Counted from the first letter of the stretch, positions 6,169 to 62,092 are shown. The stretch is 64,000 nucleotides of DNA from an uncultured Candidatus Saccharibacteria bacterium (GCA_964544225.1 CAZIZK010000004.1:883-64882), one strand, 5' to 3'. The notes: generated from the sequence alone by a model not told the origin. Program-made: numbers and translations.

Positions 6169-6240
6169 GGCGTGGTGGCGAAGTGGTAACGCTTCGGTCT
6201 GCAAAACCGACATGCGCGGGTTCAATTCCCGCCCACGCCT
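6169..6240 (+). tRNA. tRNA-Cys (GCA)
   Basis: ggcgtggtggcgaagtggtaacgc...ctGCAaa...gggttcaattcccgcccacgcct. 7-bp acceptor GGCGUGG/CCACGCC, anticodon loop cuGCAaa. Confidence 0.85.
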
Positions 6241-6261
6241 CAGGTTTTTGTTTTTATATAT

Positions 6262-6344
6262 GCTGGAGTGGCGGAATTGGTATACGCGCTAGTCTTAGGA
6301 ACTAGTACCGAAAGGTTTAGGAGTTCAAGTCTCCTCTCCAGCAC
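6262..6344 (+). tRNA. tRNA-Leu (TAG), long variable arm
   Basis: gctggagtggcggaattggt...ctTAGga...long variable arm...ggagttcaagtctcctctccagca. Acceptor GCUGGAG/CUCCAGC. Confidence 0.85.
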
Positions 6345-6461
6345 ATTTACAAGAGTAAAATTTTGTAAAAAAGTTTTTAAAAATATTTGCCCTGTTATGC
6401 TGTTTTGGTAGATAACAGAATATGTGGTAAATGGTTTAGATAATGTAGAATAATTAAATAC

Positions 6462-6534
6462 GCCCTGTTAGCTCAGCTGGTAGAGCAGCTCCCTCTTAAG
6501 GAGAAGGTCGTAGGTTCGATCCCTACACGGGGCA
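6462..6534 (+). tRNA. tRNA-Lys (CTT)
   Basis: gccctgttagctcagctggtagagcagctccctCTTaaggag...ggttcgatccctacacggggca. Canonical D and T loops. Confidence 0.85.
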
Positions 6535-6562
6535 CAAAGAAAAAGTGTGCTTTTTCTTCCTT

Positions 6563-6646
6563 GCCCGAGTGGTGTAATTGGTAGCCACGAGAGACTTAAA
6601 ATTTCTTGACCTTACGGTCGTGTGGGTTCAAGTCCCACCTCGGGCA
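6563..6646 (+). tRNA. tRNA-Leu (TAA), long variable arm
   Basis: gcccgagtggtgtaattggtagccacgagagacttaaaatttct...gggttcaagtcccacctcgggca. Anticodon loop cuUAAaa. Confidence 0.85.
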
Positions 6647-38746: not shown

Positions 38747-38821
38747 TGGCTCCCCGGGTAGGGATCGAACCTACGACCTTAGAATTAACAGTTCTCTGCT
38801 CTGCCGCTGAGCTACCGGGGA
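38747..38821 (-). tRNA. tRNA-Asn (GTT)
   Basis: Minus strand: tccccggtagctcagcggcagagcagagaactGTTaattctaaggtcgtaggttcgatccctacccggggagcca. Acceptor UCCCCGG/CCGGGGA, anticodon loop cuGUUaa, encoded CCA. Track ORF 38550..38810 runs through it and is not credible at its 3' end. Confidence 0.85.
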
Positions 38822-42847: not shown

Positions 42848-42853
42848 GGGGGT

Positions 42854-42883
42854 ATTATAGCATACTTAATACCCTTTTGTCAA
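42854..42883 (-). promoter_or_regulatory. consensus promoter TTGACA-18-TATAAT, 6 nt upstream of ATG (leaderless-type) for 41924..42847
   Basis: Minus strand: cTTGACAaaagggtattaagtatgcTATAATacccccATG. Confidence 0.6.
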
Positions 42884-42912
42884 GCCCTGTCGCCTATAGG
42901 CGACAGGGCTTG
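42881..42912. promoter_or_regulatory. perfect 14-4-14 palindrome overlapping the -35 box in a divergent promoter region (candidate operator)
   Basis: CAAGCCCTGTCGCCtataGGCGACAGGGCTTG; left arm overlaps the minus-strand -35, right arm ends in TTGACC facing the plus-strand gene. Confidence 0.5.
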
Positions 42913-44750: not shown

Positions 44751-45428
44751 CTAACTTTGTTTCAAAAGGAAATAGTGGTTTGCTTTGTATGTGCATGGAA
44801 TTTTGGTATGACGCAGATTATAATGCATCTTTCCATCAGATTTTTTACCCATACTTTCCAGGTATATCACATAAATGTGCGGACCTGTTTCGTCGGTCAA
44901 TTCGCAGTAACCGATGTTCAGGTTCTCCTGACCATCTTTTTCTACCTCATTAATCAATACACCCTCACCATAAGTATGATCCAAGATTACATCGTGTGCA
45001 GTCACCAATATTTCATCTAATGATGATAGGCTGCATACATCGAATTTATTGATTATATCAATATCCGACAAACCAGGGTTAATTATTTTATAATGCTCGT
45101 AGGATTGTGGTGCATCTGAAATATTAAAATCTTTTGTGCCGATTTGCATAGCAACAAGACGCTTTGCAATAATAGGATCAATGGAATCAATAACGTGAAA
45201 TTCGTTTGTTATTGTCTGAAAAAAGAAAGGTTCTACTATTGCGGCATCACGGATATATTCACCTATTTTTTTAAACTGAACTTTTTTGTTTTCGGTCAGT
45301 CCAATGTGGATTTGGGAGATTGCTTCCCTGTTTTCAGTAATTCTTTTTTCAAGCATCGCTATCTCGTTCAAGCGATTTCCAACCACTCTATCAAGGATAA
45401 GTGGTTTTACATTTTCTTGTGTGCTCAT
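44751..45428 (-). CDS. hypothetical protein
   Basis: Start taken at ATG 45428 (MSTQENVKPL...). The track ORF begins 16 codons upstream at a TTG. No motif recognised. Confidence 0.35.
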   Translation of the reverse strand: MSTQENVKPLILDRVVGNRLNEIAMLEKRITENREAISQIHIGLTENKKVQFKKIGEYIRDAAIVEPFFFQTITNEFHVIDSIDPIIAKRLVAMQIGTKDFNISDAPQSYEHYKIINPGLSDIDIINKFDVCSLSSLDEILVTAHDVILDHTYGEGVLINEVEKDGQENLNIGYCELTDETGPHIYVIYLESMGKKSDGKMHYNLRHTKIPCTYKANHYFLLKQS

Positions 45429-45533
45429 ACGTATTTTATTTTTTGTTTTGCTACACATTAACACATATTTATACAAAAGTAAATGGGTAAATTTTTAGTA
45501 AATACACACGGTCTGGTATAATACCCGGATGGA

Positions 45534-45653
45534 TCCCGTTAGAAGTCATGTATGTTATTCAGGCTACGGGAAGAATTTTACAGAAATAGTTATTTTATAT
45601 TTTATTATTTAATTTATGTACGATAATCTAAAGATTATCTACTTCTAACGGGA
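45534..45653. mobile_element. MITE-like element copy 1 (120 bp; 12-bp TIR TCCCGTTAGAAG/CTTCTAACGGGA; TSD TGGA), abutting the purH start codon
   Basis: ggaTGGA|TCCCGTTAGAAGtcatg...ctaaagattatctaCTTCTAACGGGA|TGGAaaaac. The purH ATG is formed by the terminal A of the element plus TG of the duplicated TGGA. Confidence 0.65.
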
Positions 45654-47140
45654 TGGAAAAACAAATCAAAACAGCATTAATATCAGTATTTAATAAAGAT
45701 GGCCTCGATGATATTATCCGACTCTTGGACAAAAGTGGGGTCAAAATTATCTCTACAGGTGGCACAGCCGATTTTATCAAAGGCCTAGGTGTAAGTGTGA
45801 CAACAGTAGAAAGTGTCACTGGCTTCCCTTCAGTTTTCGGTGGGCGTGTTAAAACTTTGCAACCACAAATATTTGGCGGAATTCTAAATCGTCGCGACAA
45901 TGCCGATGATATGAAGGAAAAGGCTGAACACAAGATAGAAGATATTGATCTGGTAATAGTGGACCTGTACCCATTCTTTGAAACATTAAAGGCTGGCGGA
46001 ACAGAAGAAGAGATAATTGAAAAGATCGATATAGGTGGAGTGTCGCTGATACGTGCAGCTGCAAAGAATTTTAATGACGTAGTGGTAGTCCCTTCAAAGA
46101 ACCAATACAGCTATCTGAAAAATATTCTAGATGGTGGCACAGTTACAACACTTGAACAACGTAAACACCTAGCTTCAACTGCATTCGAGGTAACAGGTGG
46201 GTACGATATGACTATCTGGTCATATTTTAGTGGAAGTGCGCTTCGCTATGGTGAGAACCCGCATCAAAGTGGCCAGTTCATGGGTGATATGAATAAAGTA
46301 TTCAACATACTGCAAGGTAAAGAACTTTCATACAACAACCTGCTGGACGCAGATGCTGCAATACGCTTAATAAAGGATTTCAATATGCCTGCATTCGCAA
46401 TATTGAAGCATACCAATGCCTGCGGTTGCGCAACTGGTAATATGAGTACATTGGAGCTTTTGAAGAAGGCATATACTACTGACCCAGTGTCTGCATTTGG
46501 TGGCATACTAGTAACCAATCAAAAGGTAGATGCCGACACGGCAAAATATTTGGTAGAAGAAGTTAAATTATTCTTCGAATTACTTATCGCCCCCGAGTTT
46601 ACACCTGAGGCTTTGGAAATATTGAGCAAGAAGACCGATGTCCGCGTATTGAAACTCAACGATTTCGAACTCCCTATGGGTGAGATACGCACATGTCTCA
46701 ATGGCTATCTTGCACAAGACCGTGATGCACAAACCGAAACTGCGGAGAACTTCACCACAGTTACAAAGCGTGCACCAACTGAACAGGAAGTAAGTGATAT
46801 GGTAATAGGTGCAACTATAGCAAAACACTTGAAGTCTAACTGTGTAGTAATAGTAAAAGACGGCAATATGGTAACTATGGGTGCAGGACAAGTGTCACGC
46901 GTAGATGCATTGAAGAATGCATTGGAAAAGGCAAAAGGCTTCGGCCTCGAAGTTGCCGGTGGCATACTTGCTTCGGAAGCATTCCTTCCTTTCCCTGACT
47001 GTGTAGAAATAAGTGGCTCCGCTGGCGTCACCGCTGTGGTACAACCAGGTGGTAGCAAGAAGGACCAGCTATCTATCGACAAATGTGATGAAATGAATAT
47101 GGCTATGGTAACAACCGGCTTCCGACATTTTAAACATTAG
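45653..47140 (+). CDS. purH: bifunctional AICAR transformylase / IMP cyclohydrolase
   Basis: MGS-like N-domain (ALISVFNKDGL...GGTADFI), AICARFT domain; 495 aa. Confidence 0.95.
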   Translation: MEKQIKTALISVFNKDGLDDIIRLLDKSGVKIISTGGTADFIKGLGVSVTTVESVTGFPSVFGGRVKTLQPQIFGGILNRRDNADDMKEKAEHKIEDIDLVIVDLYPFFETLKAGGTEEEIIEKIDIGGVSLIRAAAKNFNDVVVVPSKNQYSYLKNILDGGTVTTLEQRKHLASTAFEVTGGYDMTIWSYFSGSALRYGENPHQSGQFMGDMNKVFNILQGKELSYNNLLDADAAIRLIKDFNMPAFAILKHTNACGCATGNMSTLELLKKAYTTDPVSAFGGILVTNQKVDADTAKYLVEEVKLFFELLIAPEFTPEALEILSKKTDVRVLKLNDFELPMGEIRTCLNGYLAQDRDAQTETAENFTTVTKRAPTEQEVSDMVIGATIAKHLKSNCVVIVKDGNMVTMGAGQVSRVDALKNALEKAKGFGLEVAGGILASEAFLPFPDCVEISGSAGVTAVVQPGGSKKDQLSIDKCDEMNMAMVTTGFRHFKH

Positions 47141-47198
47141 ACCTCTCCTTATTTAAAAACTTTACCCAAAATGAACGATCGTCGATATCAGGTAAAAT

Positions 47199-47231
47199 AA
47201 AAAAAATCCCGAACATCAGTCCGGGATTTTC
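47199..47231. terminator. bidirectional terminator
   Basis: aaaaaaaTCCCGaacatcagtCCGGGAttttc. Confidence 0.6.
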
Positions 47232-47245
47232 AATTTGTTTTTTGT

Positions 47246-47533
47246 TTACATGTTTATGGCACGCATGAATTCCTCCTTCGAAGAAAACAATGTGCCGAAA
47301 AATACAAACATTCCTACAACCAAACTTATAATTGAACCGCCAACAAGAGCAACTTGGTCTTGTGTGGAAGCACGATTAAAATCGGCTGCAAAACTTGGAA
47401 AGTATGTGCTTGCACACATGTAAATTAGGAATGCGCCCAATGCCAGAGCAAAAGCTCTGAATAAGAAAGGTGCAACATGGTCAACGATAGTTTCGATGAC
47501 ACTGAAAACGATTTTTTTAAATTGAATGTTCAT
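47246..47533 (-). CDS. small membrane protein, hypothetical
   Basis: 95 aa, two TM helices. Confidence 0.35.
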   Translation of the reverse strand: MNIQFKKIVFSVIETIVDHVAPFLFRAFALALGAFLIYMCASTYFPSFAADFNRASTQDQVALVGGSIISLVVGMFVFFGTLFSSKEEFMRAINM

Positions 47534-47720
47534 GATGTTTTTTTGTTAGTTGGTTTAGCAGAAAGGATATAAATCCCCTCAACTAAACCAACTAAAAACA
47601 TCATCTTTCAAACAACTTAACTTTAGTATATTATAGCACAATATATGCCTATTTGTCAAGTAAAAATACGTTGATAAATAAGGGTTTAATTGGCTTTTAT
47701 AGGTATGATATAATGAACCA

Positions 47721-50396
47721 ATGCAAAAGAAAAATAATACAAAAACTAGTAAAAAACCAAAGAAAGAATCTGTTCGCCTAGTGCCACATATCAAGCCTGT
47801 TAAATACACACTAAAATTGAAGCCGGACTTAGAATCTTTTACCTTCGAAGGTAATGAGGTGATAGATATTGTGATAGACAAGGCTGTGAGTGAGGTAACT
47901 CTGCACTCAAAAGATTTAGATATCACAACTGTAGAAGTAACAAGTGGCAAGGCTTCACAATTTGCAAATAAAATTAAATACAATGAAAAGGCTGAGACAG
48001 CCACATTTACTTTCAAGAACAACATTCCGAAGGGAAAGTTAAAATTAAAAATTATTTTCTCAGGAATTATTAGCGAAGGATTGCGAGGATTCTATCGCAG
48101 TCGCTACACCCTCGATGGAAAGGTAAAGCATATTGCAACAACTCAGTTCGAAGCTACCGATGCACGTAGGGCCTTCCCCTCTTTCGACGAGCCGGCTCAC
48201 AAAGCAATTTTCGACCTATCGCTCATTATCCCTGGTACTCATACAGCAATATCAAACACTTTGCCAACAAAGATAAGTGAACACGAAGGTGGATACAAAG
48301 TAATCGAATTCGCATCTACTCCAAAAATGTCTACATACCTACTGGCATTTATAATCGGCGAATTTGAATTTGTGGAAGGGTACGCTTCTTCGGGGAAACA
48401 TTCTTCTAAAAATCGTTTATCCCTACCTCGTCCCGAGGGCGAGGCGCGCGCCCACACCTACGATTTTGATAAGAACATTTCCCCTACAAAAACACTCGTT
48501 AGAGTCTACACAACCGCTGGTAAAAAGCACCAGGCAAAGTTTGCCCTCGATGTAGCTATCAAGTCGTTGGAATTCTACAATGATTATTTCGGTATTCCCT
48601 ACCCACTTCCGACACTGGACCTCATTGCCCTACCGGACTTTGAGTCCGCTGCCATGGAAAACTGGGGCGCAGTTACATTCCGCGAGACAGCATTGCTCGT
48701 AGACGATGAACACACTTCATTTGCCAACAAGCAATGGGTAGCGATAGTTATCGCACACGAATTGGCACACCAATGGTTCGGCAACTTGGTTACTATGCAC
48801 TGGTGGACAGACTTGTGGCTCAACGAAGGCTTTGCCTCATACATGGAATACCTATGTACTGACCACATGTTCCCTGAATGGAAAGTCTGGGATCTATACC
48901 TTGCCGAGCGTTACTCACTAGCACTACGCCTGGACGCACTTGCTAACTCGCACCCTATCGAAGTCGAAGTTCACCACCCAAACGAGATCAATGAAATATT
49001 CGACATGGTGTCATATGCAAAAGGCTCGGCGGTGATACGTATGCTTGCGGAATACCTGGGCGCAGACACTTTCAAGAAAGGCTTGCAACACTACATGAAG
49101 AAGCACAGCTATGGCAACACTGTTACCATGGACCTATGGGATGCATTTGAAAAGGCAAGTAAAAAGCCAGTAAAGAAAATGATGCGCGAGTGGACAGGCC
49201 GTACAGGTTACCCACTGCTTAGTTTAGATAAAAATAAAGTAACTCAAGAAAGGTTCTTCTCGAGTCGTGTGTCTAAAGAGAATAATAAGGAGAAGACTAC
49301 TTGGCAGATACCTCTTTCATACAAAGATGGTGACAATACAAAGAAAGTTCTAATAGATAAAAAGTCTACAAATATTGTAGGTAAAAATATTGGCAAGTTA
49401 AATACTGGCGAAGTGTCTATGCTACGCGTAAAGTATGACGAAGCTACAATAGCCCGCCTAAAGTCTGAGATATCTTCTGGCACAATGAGTGTACATGACA
49501 GGCTAGGTATTGCCCGTGATATCTTTGCACTAGCTGAGGCAGGCTATACTAGTGCCACAGTCGCTATGGACTTTGCCCAATCATTCAAGAACGAGACCGA
49601 GTATATAGTCTGGGCAGAACTTGCCAGTGGTATCGACAAAGTATACAGCCTGATAGCCGAAGAAAGTTGGGCAGATAATTACAAGAAATATGCTTTGCAA
49701 CTATTCTCGCCTCTTGCACACCGTATGGGCTGGCACGCAAAAAGTGCAAGTAATACCGACACATTCCTACGCAACCTGGCCCTATCACATGCGGCACTTT
49801 ATGGCGATGACTTGATAATTAAATATGGCAAGAAATTATTTAAGGAATCTGGAAAGACAAAGATCCCTGCCGACATCCGAAGTGTTGTATATGGAATTGT
49901 AGCCCGCGATGGTAAAGAGACTGATTGGAATAAATTCAAAACTATGTACAAGTCTGCCACTCTAGATGAAGAGCGCGACAGATGTGGCCGAGCACTTGCA
50001 CAGTTCCGCGACAAGACACTGTTAGCAAAGACACTTACATTTGCAATCTCAAAAGAAGTTCGCATGCAAGATACGCCATTTATGATAGGCTCTGTATGGG
50101 GTAATAGTAAAGGTCGCGACTTGGCATGGCAATTTGTCCAACATAATTGGCCGACACTGCTGAAGAAATATGGCGAGGGTGGACACTTCCTAGGGCGATT
50201 ACTATCACCACTAGGTACACACACCAAAGTATCTGATGCAAAAGCTATCAAAATATTCTTCAAGAAGAATGAGGCCCCAGGGGCACAAAGAACTATCGAA
50301 CAGTCACTGGAACGTATATATTCCAATGCTTCATGGATTGCCTCGGACAAGAACAACATAAAAAAGTGGCTAGAGAAGTGGAATGAATCCCGTTAG
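47721..50396 (+). CDS. pepN: aminopeptidase N (M1 metallopeptidase)
   Basis: GAMENWG, HELAHQWFGNLVTMHWWTDLWLNEGFASYME (HEXXH-18-E), ERAP C-terminal helical domain; 891 aa. Its last three codons and stop (E-S-R-*) lie inside the left TIR of MITE copy 2. Confidence 0.9.
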   Translation: MQKKNNTKTSKKPKKESVRLVPHIKPVKYTLKLKPDLESFTFEGNEVIDIVIDKAVSEVTLHSKDLDITTVEVTSGKASQFANKIKYNEKAETATFTFKNNIPKGKLKLKIIFSGIISEGLRGFYRSRYTLDGKVKHIATTQFEATDARRAFPSFDEPAHKAIFDLSLIIPGTHTAISNTLPTKISEHEGGYKVIEFASTPKMSTYLLAFIIGEFEFVEGYASSGKHSSKNRLSLPRPEGEARAHTYDFDKNISPTKTLVRVYTTAGKKHQAKFALDVAIKSLEFYNDYFGIPYPLPTLDLIALPDFESAAMENWGAVTFRETALLVDDEHTSFANKQWVAIVIAHELAHQWFGNLVTMHWWTDLWLNEGFASYMEYLCTDHMFPEWKVWDLYLAERYSLALRLDALANSHPIEVEVHHPNEINEIFDMVSYAKGSAVIRMLAEYLGADTFKKGLQHYMKKHSYGNTVTMDLWDAFEKASKKPVKKMMREWTGRTGYPLLSLDKNKVTQERFFSSRVSKENNKEKTTWQIPLSYKDGDNTKKVLIDKKSTNIVGKNIGKLNTGEVSMLRVKYDEATIARLKSEISSGTMSVHDRLGIARDIFALAEAGYTSATVAMDFAQSFKNETEYIVWAELASGIDKVYSLIAEESWADNYKKYALQLFSPLAHRMGWHAKSASNTDTFLRNLALSHAALYGDDLIIKYGKKLFKESGKTKIPADIRSVVYGIVARDGKETDWNKFKTMYKSATLDEERDRCGRALAQFRDKTLLAKTLTFAISKEVRMQDTPFMIGSVWGNSKGRDLAWQFVQHNWPTLLKKYGEGGHFLGRLLSPLGTHTKVSDAKAIKIFFKKNEAPGAQRTIEQSLERIYSNASWIASDKNNIKKWLEKWNESR

Positions 50397-50505
50397 AAGC
50401 CACGATCACGATATTATGGTAATATCTATATATGAAAGAACATTTTAAAATTATTAATTTAACAAGTAAGGCACGTATATTGATCGTGACCTGCTTCTAA
50501 CGGGA
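50388..50505. mobile_element. MITE-like element copy 2 (118 bp; same 12-bp TIRs; TSD TGAA), between pepN and the next gene
   Basis: gaaTGAA|TCCCGTTAGAAGccacg...cgtgacctgCTTCTAACGGGA|TGAAcatac. The internal part has its own inverted repeat (cacgatcacgatat...atattgatcgtg). Confidence 0.65.
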
Positions 50506-51041
50506 TGAACATACACCCAATATTTGTGCACTTCCCTATAGCGTTACTAACCATATACGCTATGATGGAATTATTAAAATTCAAAAAAGTAAAAGAACTT
50601 CCATACTTCTTTTACACTAAGGCTATCATCCTTATCATCGGTGCACTTAGTTCATCTGTAGCATTGCAAACTGGTGAGATGGCTGAAGACGCTCTAAACA
50701 GCCCCGAATTACATAACCTTGTAGAAAAGCACGCTTGGTTTGCAGGATTTGCATCATACATATTTGCCGTACTTGCTATTGTGTATGCCGTATCATGGGT
50801 AAATAAATCAGATTTTGCAAAGAATATATTATCAAAAGTTACAAATATTGGCATAATCAACAAGCTTTGGATATTTGTATCGAGCATAGCAGAAAAGATA
50901 CTAGCAAGTGACTTATTAATGATAACCCTTGCCATAGTAGGCCTCGCAACTATCACTATTACAGGTGCACTCGGTGGCGCTATTGTATACGGCCCAAATA
51001 TAGACCCAATAGTACAGATCATATACAACTTGGTAATGTAA
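50505..51041 (+). CDS. DUF2231-like membrane protein
   Basis: MNIHPIFVHFPIALL N-terminal motif plus 4 TM; 178 aa. Confidence 0.45.
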   Translation: MNIHPIFVHFPIALLTIYAMMELLKFKKVKELPYFFYTKAIILIIGALSSSVALQTGEMAEDALNSPELHNLVEKHAWFAGFASYIFAVLAIVYAVSWVNKSDFAKNILSKVTNIGIINKLWIFVSSIAEKILASDLLMITLAIVGLATITITGALGGAIVYGPNIDPIVQIIYNLVM

Positions 51042-51047
51042 TATGAA

Positions 51048-51130
51048 TCCCGTTAGAAATTATTTATGTTATATTACTACTATTATCAAATTAATTACGA
51101 AAGTCTAAAGACTTTCTATTTCTAACGGGA
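51048..51130. mobile_element. MITE-like element copy 3 (83 bp; TIRs TCCCGTTAGAAA/TTTCTAACGGGA; TSD TGAA), abutting the rsmE start codon
   Basis: ataTGAA|TCCCGTTAGAAAttatt...cgaaagtctaaagactttctaTTTCTAACGGGA|TGAAgatac. The sub-terminal hairpin gaaagtCTAAAGacttt mirrors copy 1's gataatCTAAAGattat with compensatory changes. Confidence 0.65.
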
Positions 51131-51822
51131 TGAAGATACATCGATTCATAACTGCATATGAAATACGTGACGGTTCTGTAACCATACAAGACCCAGAACT
51201 AGTACACCAATTCCGCAATGTTTTAAAGTTCAAGACTGGCGAAGTCGTCATGCTTACAAATGATTCAATGCTCGAGGCCACTGTACGTATATCACATATG
51301 TCAAAAGACACTATCGACTTTGAAGTAATCGATGAAGGTGTAAACAACAACGAGCCAAAGAATAAAGTAACACTTTATCTAGCCATATTAAAGCGCGAGA
51401 ACTTCGAGCTAGTTGTCCAAAAAGCTACCGAGATAGGTATCGATAAAATAGTGCCGATCATTACAAAGAACACTGTAAAAACAGGCTTACGTTATGACCG
51501 CTTGGAAAAAATTGCAAAAGAAGCTTCCGAACTATCTGGCCGTAGTACAGTGCCTACTATTACCGAAGCCATCGAATACACAGAGGCAATTGAGCAAGTA
51601 AAAGATATTAAAGACAATATAATATTTGATATTTCAGGCAAAAAACTATCAGAAGTAAATATCAAACCAGCCAATGTATTTGTGGGGCCTGAAGGTGGCT
51701 TTACCCAAGACGAAATAAATCAAGCAAAAGATGCCAGTTTTACCGTCGCCTCCCTAGGCACCCTCACCCTCCGAGGCGAAACCGCCGCAATAGTGGCAAG
51801 TTACATATCTATAAGTAGTTAA
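51130..51822 (+). CDS. rsmE: 16S rRNA (uracil1498-N3)-methyltransferase
   Basis: MKIHRFI..., PUA-like N-terminus, SPOUT core ...GPEGGFTQDEI.... Confidence 0.8.
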   Translation: MKIHRFITAYEIRDGSVTIQDPELVHQFRNVLKFKTGEVVMLTNDSMLEATVRISHMSKDTIDFEVIDEGVNNNEPKNKVTLYLAILKRENFELVVQKATEIGIDKIVPIITKNTVKTGLRYDRLEKIAKEASELSGRSTVPTITEAIEYTEAIEQVKDIKDNIIFDISGKKLSEVNIKPANVFVGPEGGFTQDEINQAKDASFTVASLGTLTLRGETAAIVASYISISS

Positions 51823-61409: not shown

Positions 61410-61724
61410 ATATTTTTTAAAAATTATTTTTTAAAGACGTGTGATACTACGACCTTACAAAAAGATTAAAAATATTTTTGTAAAATTTTTTTAATCACAC
61501 TTACATATATATTATCTTACATATTGAATACAACTGCAATATTTTTTTCAATAAAAGTGTGGATAACTTTCCAATTTTATTTTTTTGTAAAAAATTATAA
61601 AATTGAGAATCCCGTACTAAAATTTTACAAACTGAAATTTTACTTTAAAAAAAAATTTATAAAATAAAAAAATAATGTAATAAGAAAAGTTTTATTAAAT
61701 TTTTAGTATGGGATATAAATAGTA

Positions 61725-61764: not shown

Positions 61765-62092
61765 CATATAATGACAGAGAATAATAAGCCGAATTCTGTA
61801 CCTCAGTAGATATTTATCTGGGCCTACAATTACTTGCAAGCTCTAGCGATTCTTCCCTCGATTACTCTTAGGACACGATCTTGCACACATGTAAGGATTT
61901 AGCCGTTTCACTTTTGTATTTCTACAAACTTCTCCCTAACGGGAGTCTAGCCTTTCGGCATTGACGTCACTGCTCGCACCTCTACCCTCACGGGCGATGG
62001 GTATTACCCACTACAATCCTCCTCTTACGAGGGTGTGTTCGGACTTTCCTCACCAAGTTTCCTTGGCGCATCTACTTCTTTTCTGTCACAAA
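61765..62092 (-). ncRNA. rnpB: RNase P RNA (bacterial type, divergent P4)
   Basis: Minus strand contains GAGGAAAGUCCGAAC (P4 5' strand) and, about 265 nt downstream, ACAGAAUUCGGCUUAU (P4 3' strand). GAA/UUC replaces the usual GGG/CCC, a compensatory pair. AGGGUAGAGG resembles CR-II AGGGCAGG. P1 is gacaga/tctgtc. A TATAAT -10 sits at + 62094-62099. Confidence 0.75.

Follow-up and report, generated by a model that had tools for sequence, protein, structure and literature searches.

Miniature inverted-repeat elements inserted on gene start codons in Saccharibacteria and other bacteria

How can a short piece of DNA sit directly on the start codon of a gene and be tolerated? The question is raised by a 64,000-nt stretch from an uncultured Candidatus Saccharibacteria bacterium (GCA_964544225.1, CAZIZK010000004.1:883-64882; hereafter the window), in which three short inverted-repeat elements stand in front of purH, a membrane-protein gene and rsmE. 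Genomes of the candidate phyla radiation (CPR, or Patescibacteria) are tiny and gene-dense, and nearly any insertion should harm; the family to which these elements belong nonetheless fronts essential genes in at least 109 species. A first-pass annotation had read the three stretches as miniature elements with terminal inverted repeats and 4-bp target duplications. We find that they are real mobile insertions on gene start codons. Based on the sequence evidence, they are probably non-autonomous, cut-or-copy DNA transposons similar to MITEs (miniature transposable elements with inverted repeats), which live on start codons and would be tolerated because translation begun at the old ATG is relayed across the element to a rebuilt one.

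Direct sequence reading, a half-site search and shuffled controls placed all three elements where the first-pass annotation had put them (Table 1). Their inverted termini are perfect as described, at a length of 13 bp instead of the proposed 12 bp (TCCCGTTAGAARY in all three). Element 1 reads ATGGA, TCCCGTTAGAAGT...ACTTCTAACGGGA, TGGA; element 2 reads ATGAA, TCCCGTTAGAAGC...GCTTCTAACGGGA, TGAA; and element 3 reads ATGAA, TCCCGTTAGAAAT...ATTTCTAACGGGA, TGAA, with the termini TCCCGTTAGAA(GC/AT)...TTCTAACGGGA shared by elements 2 and 3. All are on the + strand relative to the downstream gene and keep the original ATG in the left flank, while the last A of the element and the TG of the right-hand duplication rebuild an ATG that starts a long open reading frame (ORF) in each case, again as had been claimed. 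Searching the window for the 12-mer terminus with up to one mismatch returned six half-sites only, all belonging to the three elements, and the paired-terminus pattern occurred three times compared with zero times in 100 shuffles. Folding of the window elements as RNA gave terminal stems of 13-22 bp (z = -2.8 to -6.2), the longest being the 22-bp stem of element 2 with its 4-nt bulge (ACCU) on the 3' arm. The sub-terminal hairpin of elements 1 and 3 consists of a 7-bp stem with the loop TAAA, followed by TAYTTCT, and is terminator-like by scan. It folds with the compensatory changes previously noted and is kept with further such changes in many genomes, where it can lie beside either terminus. 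The stop codon of pepN does fall inside the left terminus of element 2 (TAG, 50394-50396).

Table 1. Coordinates of the elements, their targets and the associated genes in the window.
Feature	Position	Strand	Remarks
Element 1	45534..45653	+	120 bp; 13-bp inverted termini 45534-45546 and 45641-45653
Element 1 sub-terminal hairpin	45622-45639		GATAATC-TAAA-GATTATC
Element 1 target	45529..45533	+	ATGGA, original purH ATG plus 2 nt
Element 1 duplication	left 45530-45533; right 45654-45657		TGGA
purH	45653..47140	+	495 aa; ATG made of last A of element 1 and TG of duplication
purH -10 box	45517..45522	+	TATAAT; 6 nt before original ATG, now 124 nt from functional ATG
Element 1 read-in ORF	45529..45612	+	From original ATG (MDPVRSHVCYSGYGKNFTEIVILYFII); stop 45610-45612
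Element 1 mini-ORF	45616-45648		MYDNLKIIYF; stop is right-terminus TAA, 4 nt before purH ATG at 45653
Element 2	50388..50505	+	118 bp; 'CGCG-bulge' subfamily
Element 2 target	50383..50387	+	ATGAA, original membrane-gene ATG plus 2 nt
Element 2 duplication	left 50384-50387; right 50506-50509		TGAA
Element 2 mini-ORF	50432..50500	+	MKEHFKIINLTSKARILIVTCF; stop TAA 50498-50500, 4 nt before host ATG at 50505
DUF2231-type membrane protein gene	50505..51041	+	178 aa; ATG rebuilt by element 2
Element 3	51048..51130	+	83 bp; sub-terminal hairpin 51099-51116
Element 3 target	51043..51047	+	ATGAA, original rsmE ATG plus 2 nt; 1 nt after TAA of upstream gene
Element 3 duplication	left 51044-51047; right 51131-51134		TGAA
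rsmE	51130..51822	+	230 aa; ATG rebuilt by element 3
Fourth candidate	61610..61723		TCCCGTACTAAAA...TTTTAGTATGGGA; palindrome with 14-bp stem, between rnpB and secA

Related contigs carrying unoccupied versions of the same sites were found via RsmE homologues of 91-74% identity. At 91% (L127), the rsmE and membrane-gene sites are both occupied. At 85% (L123), rsmE is occupied, while the membrane-gene site (..aaacacATGAAcataca) and the purH site (taatATGGAaaaac) are empty. The contig at 83% (L125) is empty at rsmE (gtaatgtaatATGAAagttcatcga; allele gtaatgtaatATGAAagtt) and at the membrane gene (...tataatatATGAAcatacaccc), and that at 74% (L128) combines an empty membrane-gene site with a decayed copy at rsmE, which is longer and has its left ATG changed to ACG and its termini eroded. 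The purH site was not seen in L127, L125 and L128. Membrane-gene empty alleles in L125, L123 and L128 read ...ATGAAcatacaccc. The empty alleles hold one copy of the target word, and removing the element and one repeat yields exactly the empty allele. Empty sites, which the first-pass annotation had predicted, were thus found for all three genes, and because they are exact, the three window elements are insertions, at sites that are polymorphic between related genomes. The rsmE-site element is identical at 83/83 positions between the window (51048-51130) and L123 (7919-8001) in flanks that are 79-81% identical up to the repeat, which suggests independent hits on one start codon or a lateral, homing-like spread.

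The surroundings of the insertions also differ between these genomes. To the left of element 2 (50360-50387), the window is missing a stretch of about 30 nt present in all empty alleles (L125 4230-4268, L123 7340-7374, L128 1365-1390), which comprises the last pepN codons, the stop and a TATAAT-containing spacer; pepN in the window therefore ends ...WNESR* within the terminus of element 2. In the window, the glutamate dehydrogenase gene and purH are separated by a 241-aa ORF (44751-45476, - strand), whereas in L123 (2400-2470) purH directly follows the dehydrogenase stop (TAAtATGGA); the upstream context of purH therefore differs, with its own promoter here. The leaderless-type promoters that had been pointed out are present, TATAAT-6 nt-ATG for purH and TTGACA-N17-TATAAT-N6-ATGGA for the Fn3-like gene (42848-42895, - strand), which is clearly leaderless and offers an unoccupied ATGGA target. 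An assembly made independently from the same organism is broken within element 1 (L001 position 1, equal to window position ~45601) and several metagenome contigs end within elements, which indicates that the family fragments short-read CPR assemblies.

To determine the size of the family, one genome per species was scanned for TCCCGTTAGAA and TTCTAACGGGA separated by 51-111 nt, with flanks playing no part in the selection. This yielded at least 120 stretches in at least 109 species assemblies, and 136 elements were analysed. An independent metagenome scan for ATGRR followed by the left terminus returned at least 120 contigs, of which 100 copies were analysed for their flanks; groundwater sets from Hainich and Rifle contributed many of these matches. 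Among the matches listed are about 38 Saccharibacteria and many Paceibacteria/Parcubacteria lineages (Nomura-, Kaiser-, Yanofsky-, Jorgensen-, Taylor-, Zambryski-, Vogel-, Lipton-, Sungii- and Moranbacteria), together with Kerfeld-, Levyi- and Doudnabacteria, Kazan and four Omnitrophota; a few listed bins carry the labels Planctomycetes or Gammaproteobacteria. The further copies expected beyond the source genome therefore exist, and the family is not private to that genome but superphylum-wide (CPR/Patescibacteria, plus Omnitrophota). Host GC content ranges from 28% to 60% and the GC content of element interiors follows it (r = 0.53, slope 0.89). Only 2 matches were found in IMG/VR, so that phages are not the main vehicle. 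Copy density is 3 in 64 kb in the window and reaches 3-4 per 8 kb elsewhere, and near-identical copies occur at different genes within one genome (L082, L097).

Elements are 50-202 bp long, with clusters at ~50, 63-72, 78-83, 94-109 and 112-124 bp, and the longest ORFs inside them are junk of at most 41 codons, with no transposase gene. Perfect 13-bp termini are the mode (76/122 genome copies, 60/100 metagenome copies), and terminus positions 12 and 13 covary (G:C or A:T; T:A or C:G). Interiors are very diverse, with 38 similar pairs among ~210 elements; being mostly unrelated, copies can be counted as nearly independent. The hairpin subfamily, which includes window copies 1 and 3, was found in both orientations. 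Sister families with other inner termini (TCCCGCACC... or TCCCGCACCTTTAGAGGAC, TCCCGTACGAAG, TCCCGTTAAAT) share the TCCCG...CGGGA tips, the ATG target and the 4-bp repeat (L115 2973-7887, with at least three copies of one of them; L094 5852-5961; L233 3097-3175; L088 5397-5496). We had taken invariant termini across phyla as evidence for a host factor and withdrew this argument, since the scans required those termini and the sister families differ.

The flanks of the collected copies define the target. In the genome sample, 122 of the 136 elements could be oriented by an adjacent ATG and 81 showed an exact 4-bp TGNN repeat with an A before the left copy, while in the metagenome sample the repeat was exact in 89/100 and the ATG was rebuilt in 99/100; duplication of the flanking 4-mers is thus a property of the family, as had been proposed for the window. 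The NN positions are purine-rich (first A57 G19 C3 T2; second A62 G18 T1 C0), giving the target ATG-R-R. Inexact repeats are mostly of 3 bp, of 5 bp or with one mismatch, and always start at the T of ATG. At two sites a GTG on the left is paired with an ATG on the right, which shows that the terminal A belongs to the element. NN varies within a subfamily, and its association with subfamily is no more than marginal (chi-square p = 0.048); it is therefore taken from the target, and the alternative that the flanking repeat is carried by the element was rejected on the same grounds. Insertion thus occurs in DNA between the A and the TG of ATG-R-R and duplicates 4 bp (rarely 3 or 5) from the T of ATG; the rebuilt ATG fronts the intact gene and the original ATG remains upstream of the element.

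Departures from this pattern were also seen. The non-ATG repeat TTGA (aTTGA, element, TTGAc) occurs in three genomes (L037 2074, L041 1795, L096 1986), and TAAA, TTTA and CTTA complete this minority class. Seven elements have AC(T/C)TG as the left flank in place of ATGNN (L111 6141-6364, L025 ~1040-1192, L029 1-99, L055, L017, L115 and L054). Three of these seven adjoin the right terminus of another, often eroded element (..CGGGA-CTTG-TCCCG..); such CTTG-joined pairs are tandem dimers with a constant 4-nt spacer, and the whole L111 dimer is flanked by TGCAA.

Occupied sites are predominantly gene starts. In 108/136 copies, an ORF of 80 codons or more begins at the rebuilt ATG, compared with 20% of all ATGs, and about 85% of copies occupy the start codon of an ordinary housekeeping gene. 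The 114 downstream proteins match 160 Pfam families with ordinary, often essential functions, including SecG, SecD/F, SSB, trigger factor, aminoacyl-tRNA synthetases, L29 and MreB. Upstream of the original ATG, TANNNT peaks at 6-7 nt (59 of 187 host sites at those two spacings), while motifs like the Shine-Dalgarno sequence are present at only 13/187. This peak reproduces the leaderless geometry of purH and the Fn3 gene; other host genes, such as rsmE, are instead coupled to the upstream stop. The window contains 557 ATGRR sites, 458 in genes, 65 intergenic and 34 at called starts. As 34 of the 99 sites outside gene bodies are starts, about one third of copies should be found at starts if only genic copies were purged, far from the ~85% observed. 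Two explanations may be considered: insertions elsewhere between genes may also be purged by selection or soon disappear, or the choice of target may draw on more than the 5-mer.

It is quite possible that the transposase sees only a short word (ATGRR or TGNN) and that the restriction to gene starts results from survivorship: genic copies would be lethal, neutral intergenic copies would be quickly deleted in streamlined genomes, and start-codon copies before essential genes would be lost only through precise excision. The short, purine-biased target word, the minority of copies at non-ATG duplications (TTGA three times, TAAA, TTTA, CTTA) and the occupancy of both promoter-proximal and intra-operon start codons fit this explanation, although the discrepancy between 34/99 and ~85% does not, and most copies look young (89% exact duplications, intact termini), leaving little time for differential loss. 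We consider it more tentatively, as a somewhat unlikely option, that the transposition machinery itself recognises gene starts instead of merely passing through a selection filter. It would then read a feature of the gene start (the initiation region, for example, or in leaderless genes the open complex or transcription start) and insert in a defined orientation, one of its cuts always falling between the A and the TG of the start codon. Under such targeting, the same start codon could be hit independently in diverged lineages and GTG starts would be converted to ATG, and the family might represent a 'harmless-by-design' start-codon parasite maintained across CPR/Patescibacteria and Omnitrophota.

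The reading frames of the termini suggest how an insertion at this position may be tolerated. In frame 1, the right terminus reads ..UUC UAA CGGG AUG, with a stop 4 nt before the host AUG; in frame 2 it reads ..GGA UGA, creating an AUGA overlap when the first N is A; and in frame 3 ..UCU AAC GGG AUG gives an in-frame fusion (..S-N-G-M..). Read in the frame of the original ATG, the left terminus contains no stop codon (M-N/D-P-V-R-). Ribosomes that initiate there and encounter no interior stop would therefore always reach the host ORF. Because +1 and +2 frames read from the flank have TGA and TAG built in and are an unfair control, an interior-only control was used. Among metagenome copies, the original-ATG frame was open in 54/100 compared with 19/100 for the +1 frame and 25/100 for the reverse complement (Fisher 4e-7 and 4e-5; 300 shuffles gave a mean of 17 and a maximum of 28). 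The corresponding values for genome copies were 31/87, 11/87 and 17/87. Pooled, a direct path exists in 85/187 copies versus 28-42 in controls, and 38/187 have no translational path to the host ATG versus 83-86 in controls. Element length is a multiple of 3 in 61/122; in-frame copies (L = 50, 65, 68, 71, 83, 101) add an N-terminal peptide M-N-P-V-R...S-N-G-M, for example MNPVRNSTEYKLTDKLKSVRISNG-M....

We propose that host genes are mostly leaderless or translationally coupled and that ribosomes would still start at the original ATG, since its being left in place preserves the host initiation signal. They would read through the element from its stop-free left terminus and at the right terminus would stop at the UAA 4 nt before the AUG, stop at the UGA of AUGA, or continue in frame; the host ORF would accordingly be made either through termination-reinitiation or as a fusion with an N-terminal extension. 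In passing, the ribosome may also melt the long terminal stem, at whose base the rebuilt AUG would otherwise be held. For the family as a whole, such a relay is statistically supported by the frame counts, which point to read-through and re-initiation rather than occlusion; this signal is absent from the three window copies, which do not show the relay. The first-pass annotation had suggested that the hairpins could act as regulators. Among the variants, a right terminus with an extra A (TTCTAAACGGGA, then TG) was seen in 7/125 metagenome copies (L132, L146, L148, L165, L174, L235, L242) and has its stop 5 nt before the host ATG. Two RibD-C-like genes, in L134 and L177, begin with an in-frame left terminus (MNPVRN...) but have lost all other parts of the element; these look like old copies absorbed as an N-terminal extension.

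Movement would depend on a trans-acting transposase recognising the TCCCG...CGGGA tips; the inverted termini, the target-derived 3-5 bp repeat and the occupancy polymorphism fit an enzyme of the DDE type. The elements are non-autonomous, as neither the window, in agreement with the first-pass annotation, nor the vicinity of any copy in the fetched loci contains a transposase. Several candidates for an autonomous version were discarded. Long ORFs from the original ATG turned out to be chance 16-mer matches (L184, L137, L168), in-frame host fusions or variant right termini, and CCCG...CGGG pairs spaced by 250-4000 bp proved to belong to short elements lying close together near SecE/NusG/L11 and genes of that sort. 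A look at termini in the genome loci that were unpaired or far apart revealed no autonomous element either, and the downstream gene was rejected as a RAYT-like transposase because downstream genes are diverse housekeeping genes without a recurrent family.

Several observations weigh against our preferred explanation of start-codon transposons tolerated through a relay. The original-ATG frame stops early in all three window copies, which reach the terminus TAA only via short internal ORFs, and such relays occur at chance level compared with controls; relay through short internal ORFs was accordingly dropped as a family feature. In 20% of copies there is no translational path of any kind. The 1.72 Mb surrounding 250 copies and the 125 left-terminus matches yielded neither a transposase nor an autonomous element bearing these termini, so that the DNA-transposon mechanism is argued from anatomy. 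In the 'CGCG-bulge' subfamily, to which window copy 2 belongs, orientation with respect to the host gene is biased 62:1 despite symmetric termini, a bias that is not predicted by a simple symmetric transposase, and the 100% identical rsmE copy in ~80% identical flanks requires parallel insertion or lateral spread.

Some of these observations would be accommodated by tolerance at the RNA level instead of read-through, an explanation that we nevertheless regard as unlikely. Here, an RNase might cut the hairpin at the conserved terminal stem and leave a leaderless mRNA beginning at the rebuilt AUG, or the initiating ribosome might slide from the first to the second AUG over the stem, by 70S scanning or a hop like that of gene 60. 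The stable terminal stems of 13-22 bp, the identical AUGNN on either side of the stem, the leaderless appearance of host genes and the early stops in the read-through frame of about half of the copies, all three window ones included, speak for this possibility. If the element were removed or skipped, one would not expect so strong a surplus of open frames and of lengths that are multiples of three, and interiors contain no conserved catalytic or structured core and no Rfam match. It is quite unlikely that the elements are mobile promoters, each driving the host gene with its own outward promoter and leaderless mini-ORF. Window copy 2 does look like this, with TAATAT 6 nt before the start of a mini-ORF of 22 codons, whose stop is the terminus TAA, and the native promoter spacer of the empty alleles missing upstream, and across the family ATG-ORFs of at least 15 codons end at the terminus TAA in 52/122 copies versus 6/122 for the reverse, about half of them starting inside the element. 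Suitably spaced -10-like boxes accompany only a few of the internal mini-ORFs, though, a sigma-70 scan found no excess of promoter-like sites and internal-start arrangements are at chance level, and an internal promoter as a general family feature was therefore set aside.

Two further explanations concern what kind of element this is. Single-strand HUH/Y1 elements (IS200/IS605-PATE or REPIN/RAYT), which insert 3' of a fixed word in one orientation, would account for the hairpin shape, the insertion always directly 3' of ATGRR, the strong orientation bias of one subfamily and the conserved bulge in the stem. These systems are disfavoured because they make no target duplication, whereas here a duplication is present with an NN that is target-derived and variable within a subfamily; empty sites carry a single copy and the other subfamily occurs in both orientations, making an HUH origin highly unlikely. 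There is practically no chance that we are dealing with a vertically inherited cis-regulatory RNA leader. The constant position relative to the start codon and the conserved sequence of the terminal stem could be read that way, but the existence of empty alleles in close relatives refutes it, and the elements precede at least 160 unrelated gene families, are flanked by target duplications and have unrelated interiors without an Rfam match. The first-pass annotation had named a conserved leader as the alternative to insertion, and the empty sites and the unrelated interiors went against that alternative; all the refuting conditions it had set came out in favour of its reading.

The window holds a fourth palindrome that had been put forward as a diverged member (Table 1). 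The palindrome is real, while its membership in the family is not supported: it lacks a duplication, neither an ATG nor a gene start adjoins it, 4/12 positions of its termini differ and no exact relative was found among 251 fetched loci. It resembles the TCCCGTAC-type sister family, of which it could at most be a decayed relative. Elsewhere in the window, five tRNA genes are clustered at 6169-6646 with one further tRNA at 38750-38821, and the RNase P RNA (61769-62087) is of bacterial class A, scoring 110.8 bits, just above the threshold of 100.

With Rfam 15 at gathering thresholds, the whole window gave no match in the elements, and relaxing the limit to E up to 10 around element 1 returned noise only. 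No description of the family was found in the full-text literature, including a search with the terminus sequence, in a coverage that leaves out most subscription journals; the family is apparently undescribed. If the relay is true, it would be a new way for selfish DNA to be harmless, in which the element occupies the sole position that reuses the host initiation signals and its terminus returns the ribosome in all three frames. For genome analysis, the elements break assemblies and cause false N-terminal extensions and mis-called starts in CPR gene prediction; they also add hairpin leaders of 50-120 nt to many genes, and the family is indirect evidence for many leaderless CPR genes. The family could serve synthetic biology as a natural re-initiation cassette and population studies as a marker at strain level, and a putative enzyme that finds the A/TG junction at gene starts would be of interest as a targeting tool.

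Among known systems, programmed bypass as in phage T4 gene 60 and the 'byp' elements of yeast mitochondria shares a mobile-looking insert, identical take-off and landing codons (here AUG and AUG) and a hairpin. Such bypass depends on a signal in the nascent peptide and on a stop codon directly behind the take-off codon, whereas the elements described here have no stop after the first AUG (M-N/D-P-V-R) and no nascent-peptide signal; the excess of open frames argues that the insert is read and not skipped. The IS1380 family of insertion sequences and piggyBac produce 4-5 bp target duplications and have CC(C) tips. The piggyBac terminus CCCTAGAAAG resembles (T)CCCGTTAGAAG here, and the duplication of 3-5 bp is similar, a likeness that may be chance; the targets of both (TTAA for piggyBac) differ and no such transposase was found beside any copy. 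Integron attC sites have 5'-RYYYAAC ... GTTRRRY-3' core sites and lie in cassette arrays beside an integrase. This assignment was rejected, as the polarity here is reversed (5'-GTTAGAA ... TTCTAAC-3', on both strands) and the elements precede core housekeeping genes. Rickettsia palindromic elements are selfish palindromes that survive inside expressed genes by staying translatable. They resemble our in-frame copies as translatable palindromic inserts, but they insert in frame inside ORFs and have neither start-codon specificity nor a re-initiation design.

Termination-reinitiation coupling at overlapping or adjacent stop and start codons (ATGA, TAATG; see also PMC6728339 and PMC12548453) shares with our elements a stop codon that either lies 4 nt ahead of the host AUG (UAA CGGG AUG) or overlaps with it (AUGA). 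The difference is that the upstream 'cistron' here would be a junk ORF of a mobile element, with the signal lying within an inverted repeat. The closest comparison is with bacterial MITEs such as Correia/CREE of Neisseria, RUP/BOX of pneumococcus and MITEAba12 (see also PMC3184786, PMC2229807 and PMC6382973). Like these, our elements are 50-200 bp long, multicopy and without a transposase, have terminal inverted repeats and a short target duplication, are polymorphic between strains and form long hairpins when transcribed; terminal inverted repeats, a target-derived duplication, small size, multiple copies and presence/absence polymorphism were all found here. The known MITEs lie in intergenic DNA at short palindromic or AT-rich targets (e.g. 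TA), in contrast to the present family, for which no parent insertion sequence was found. To our knowledge, no known MITE sits on start codons, rebuilds an ATG by its terminal base, or stops or fuses translation in three frames. The MITE kind is thus known, and what is new is the start-codon niche, the rebuilt ATG, the three-frame coupler terminus and the superphylum-wide spread.

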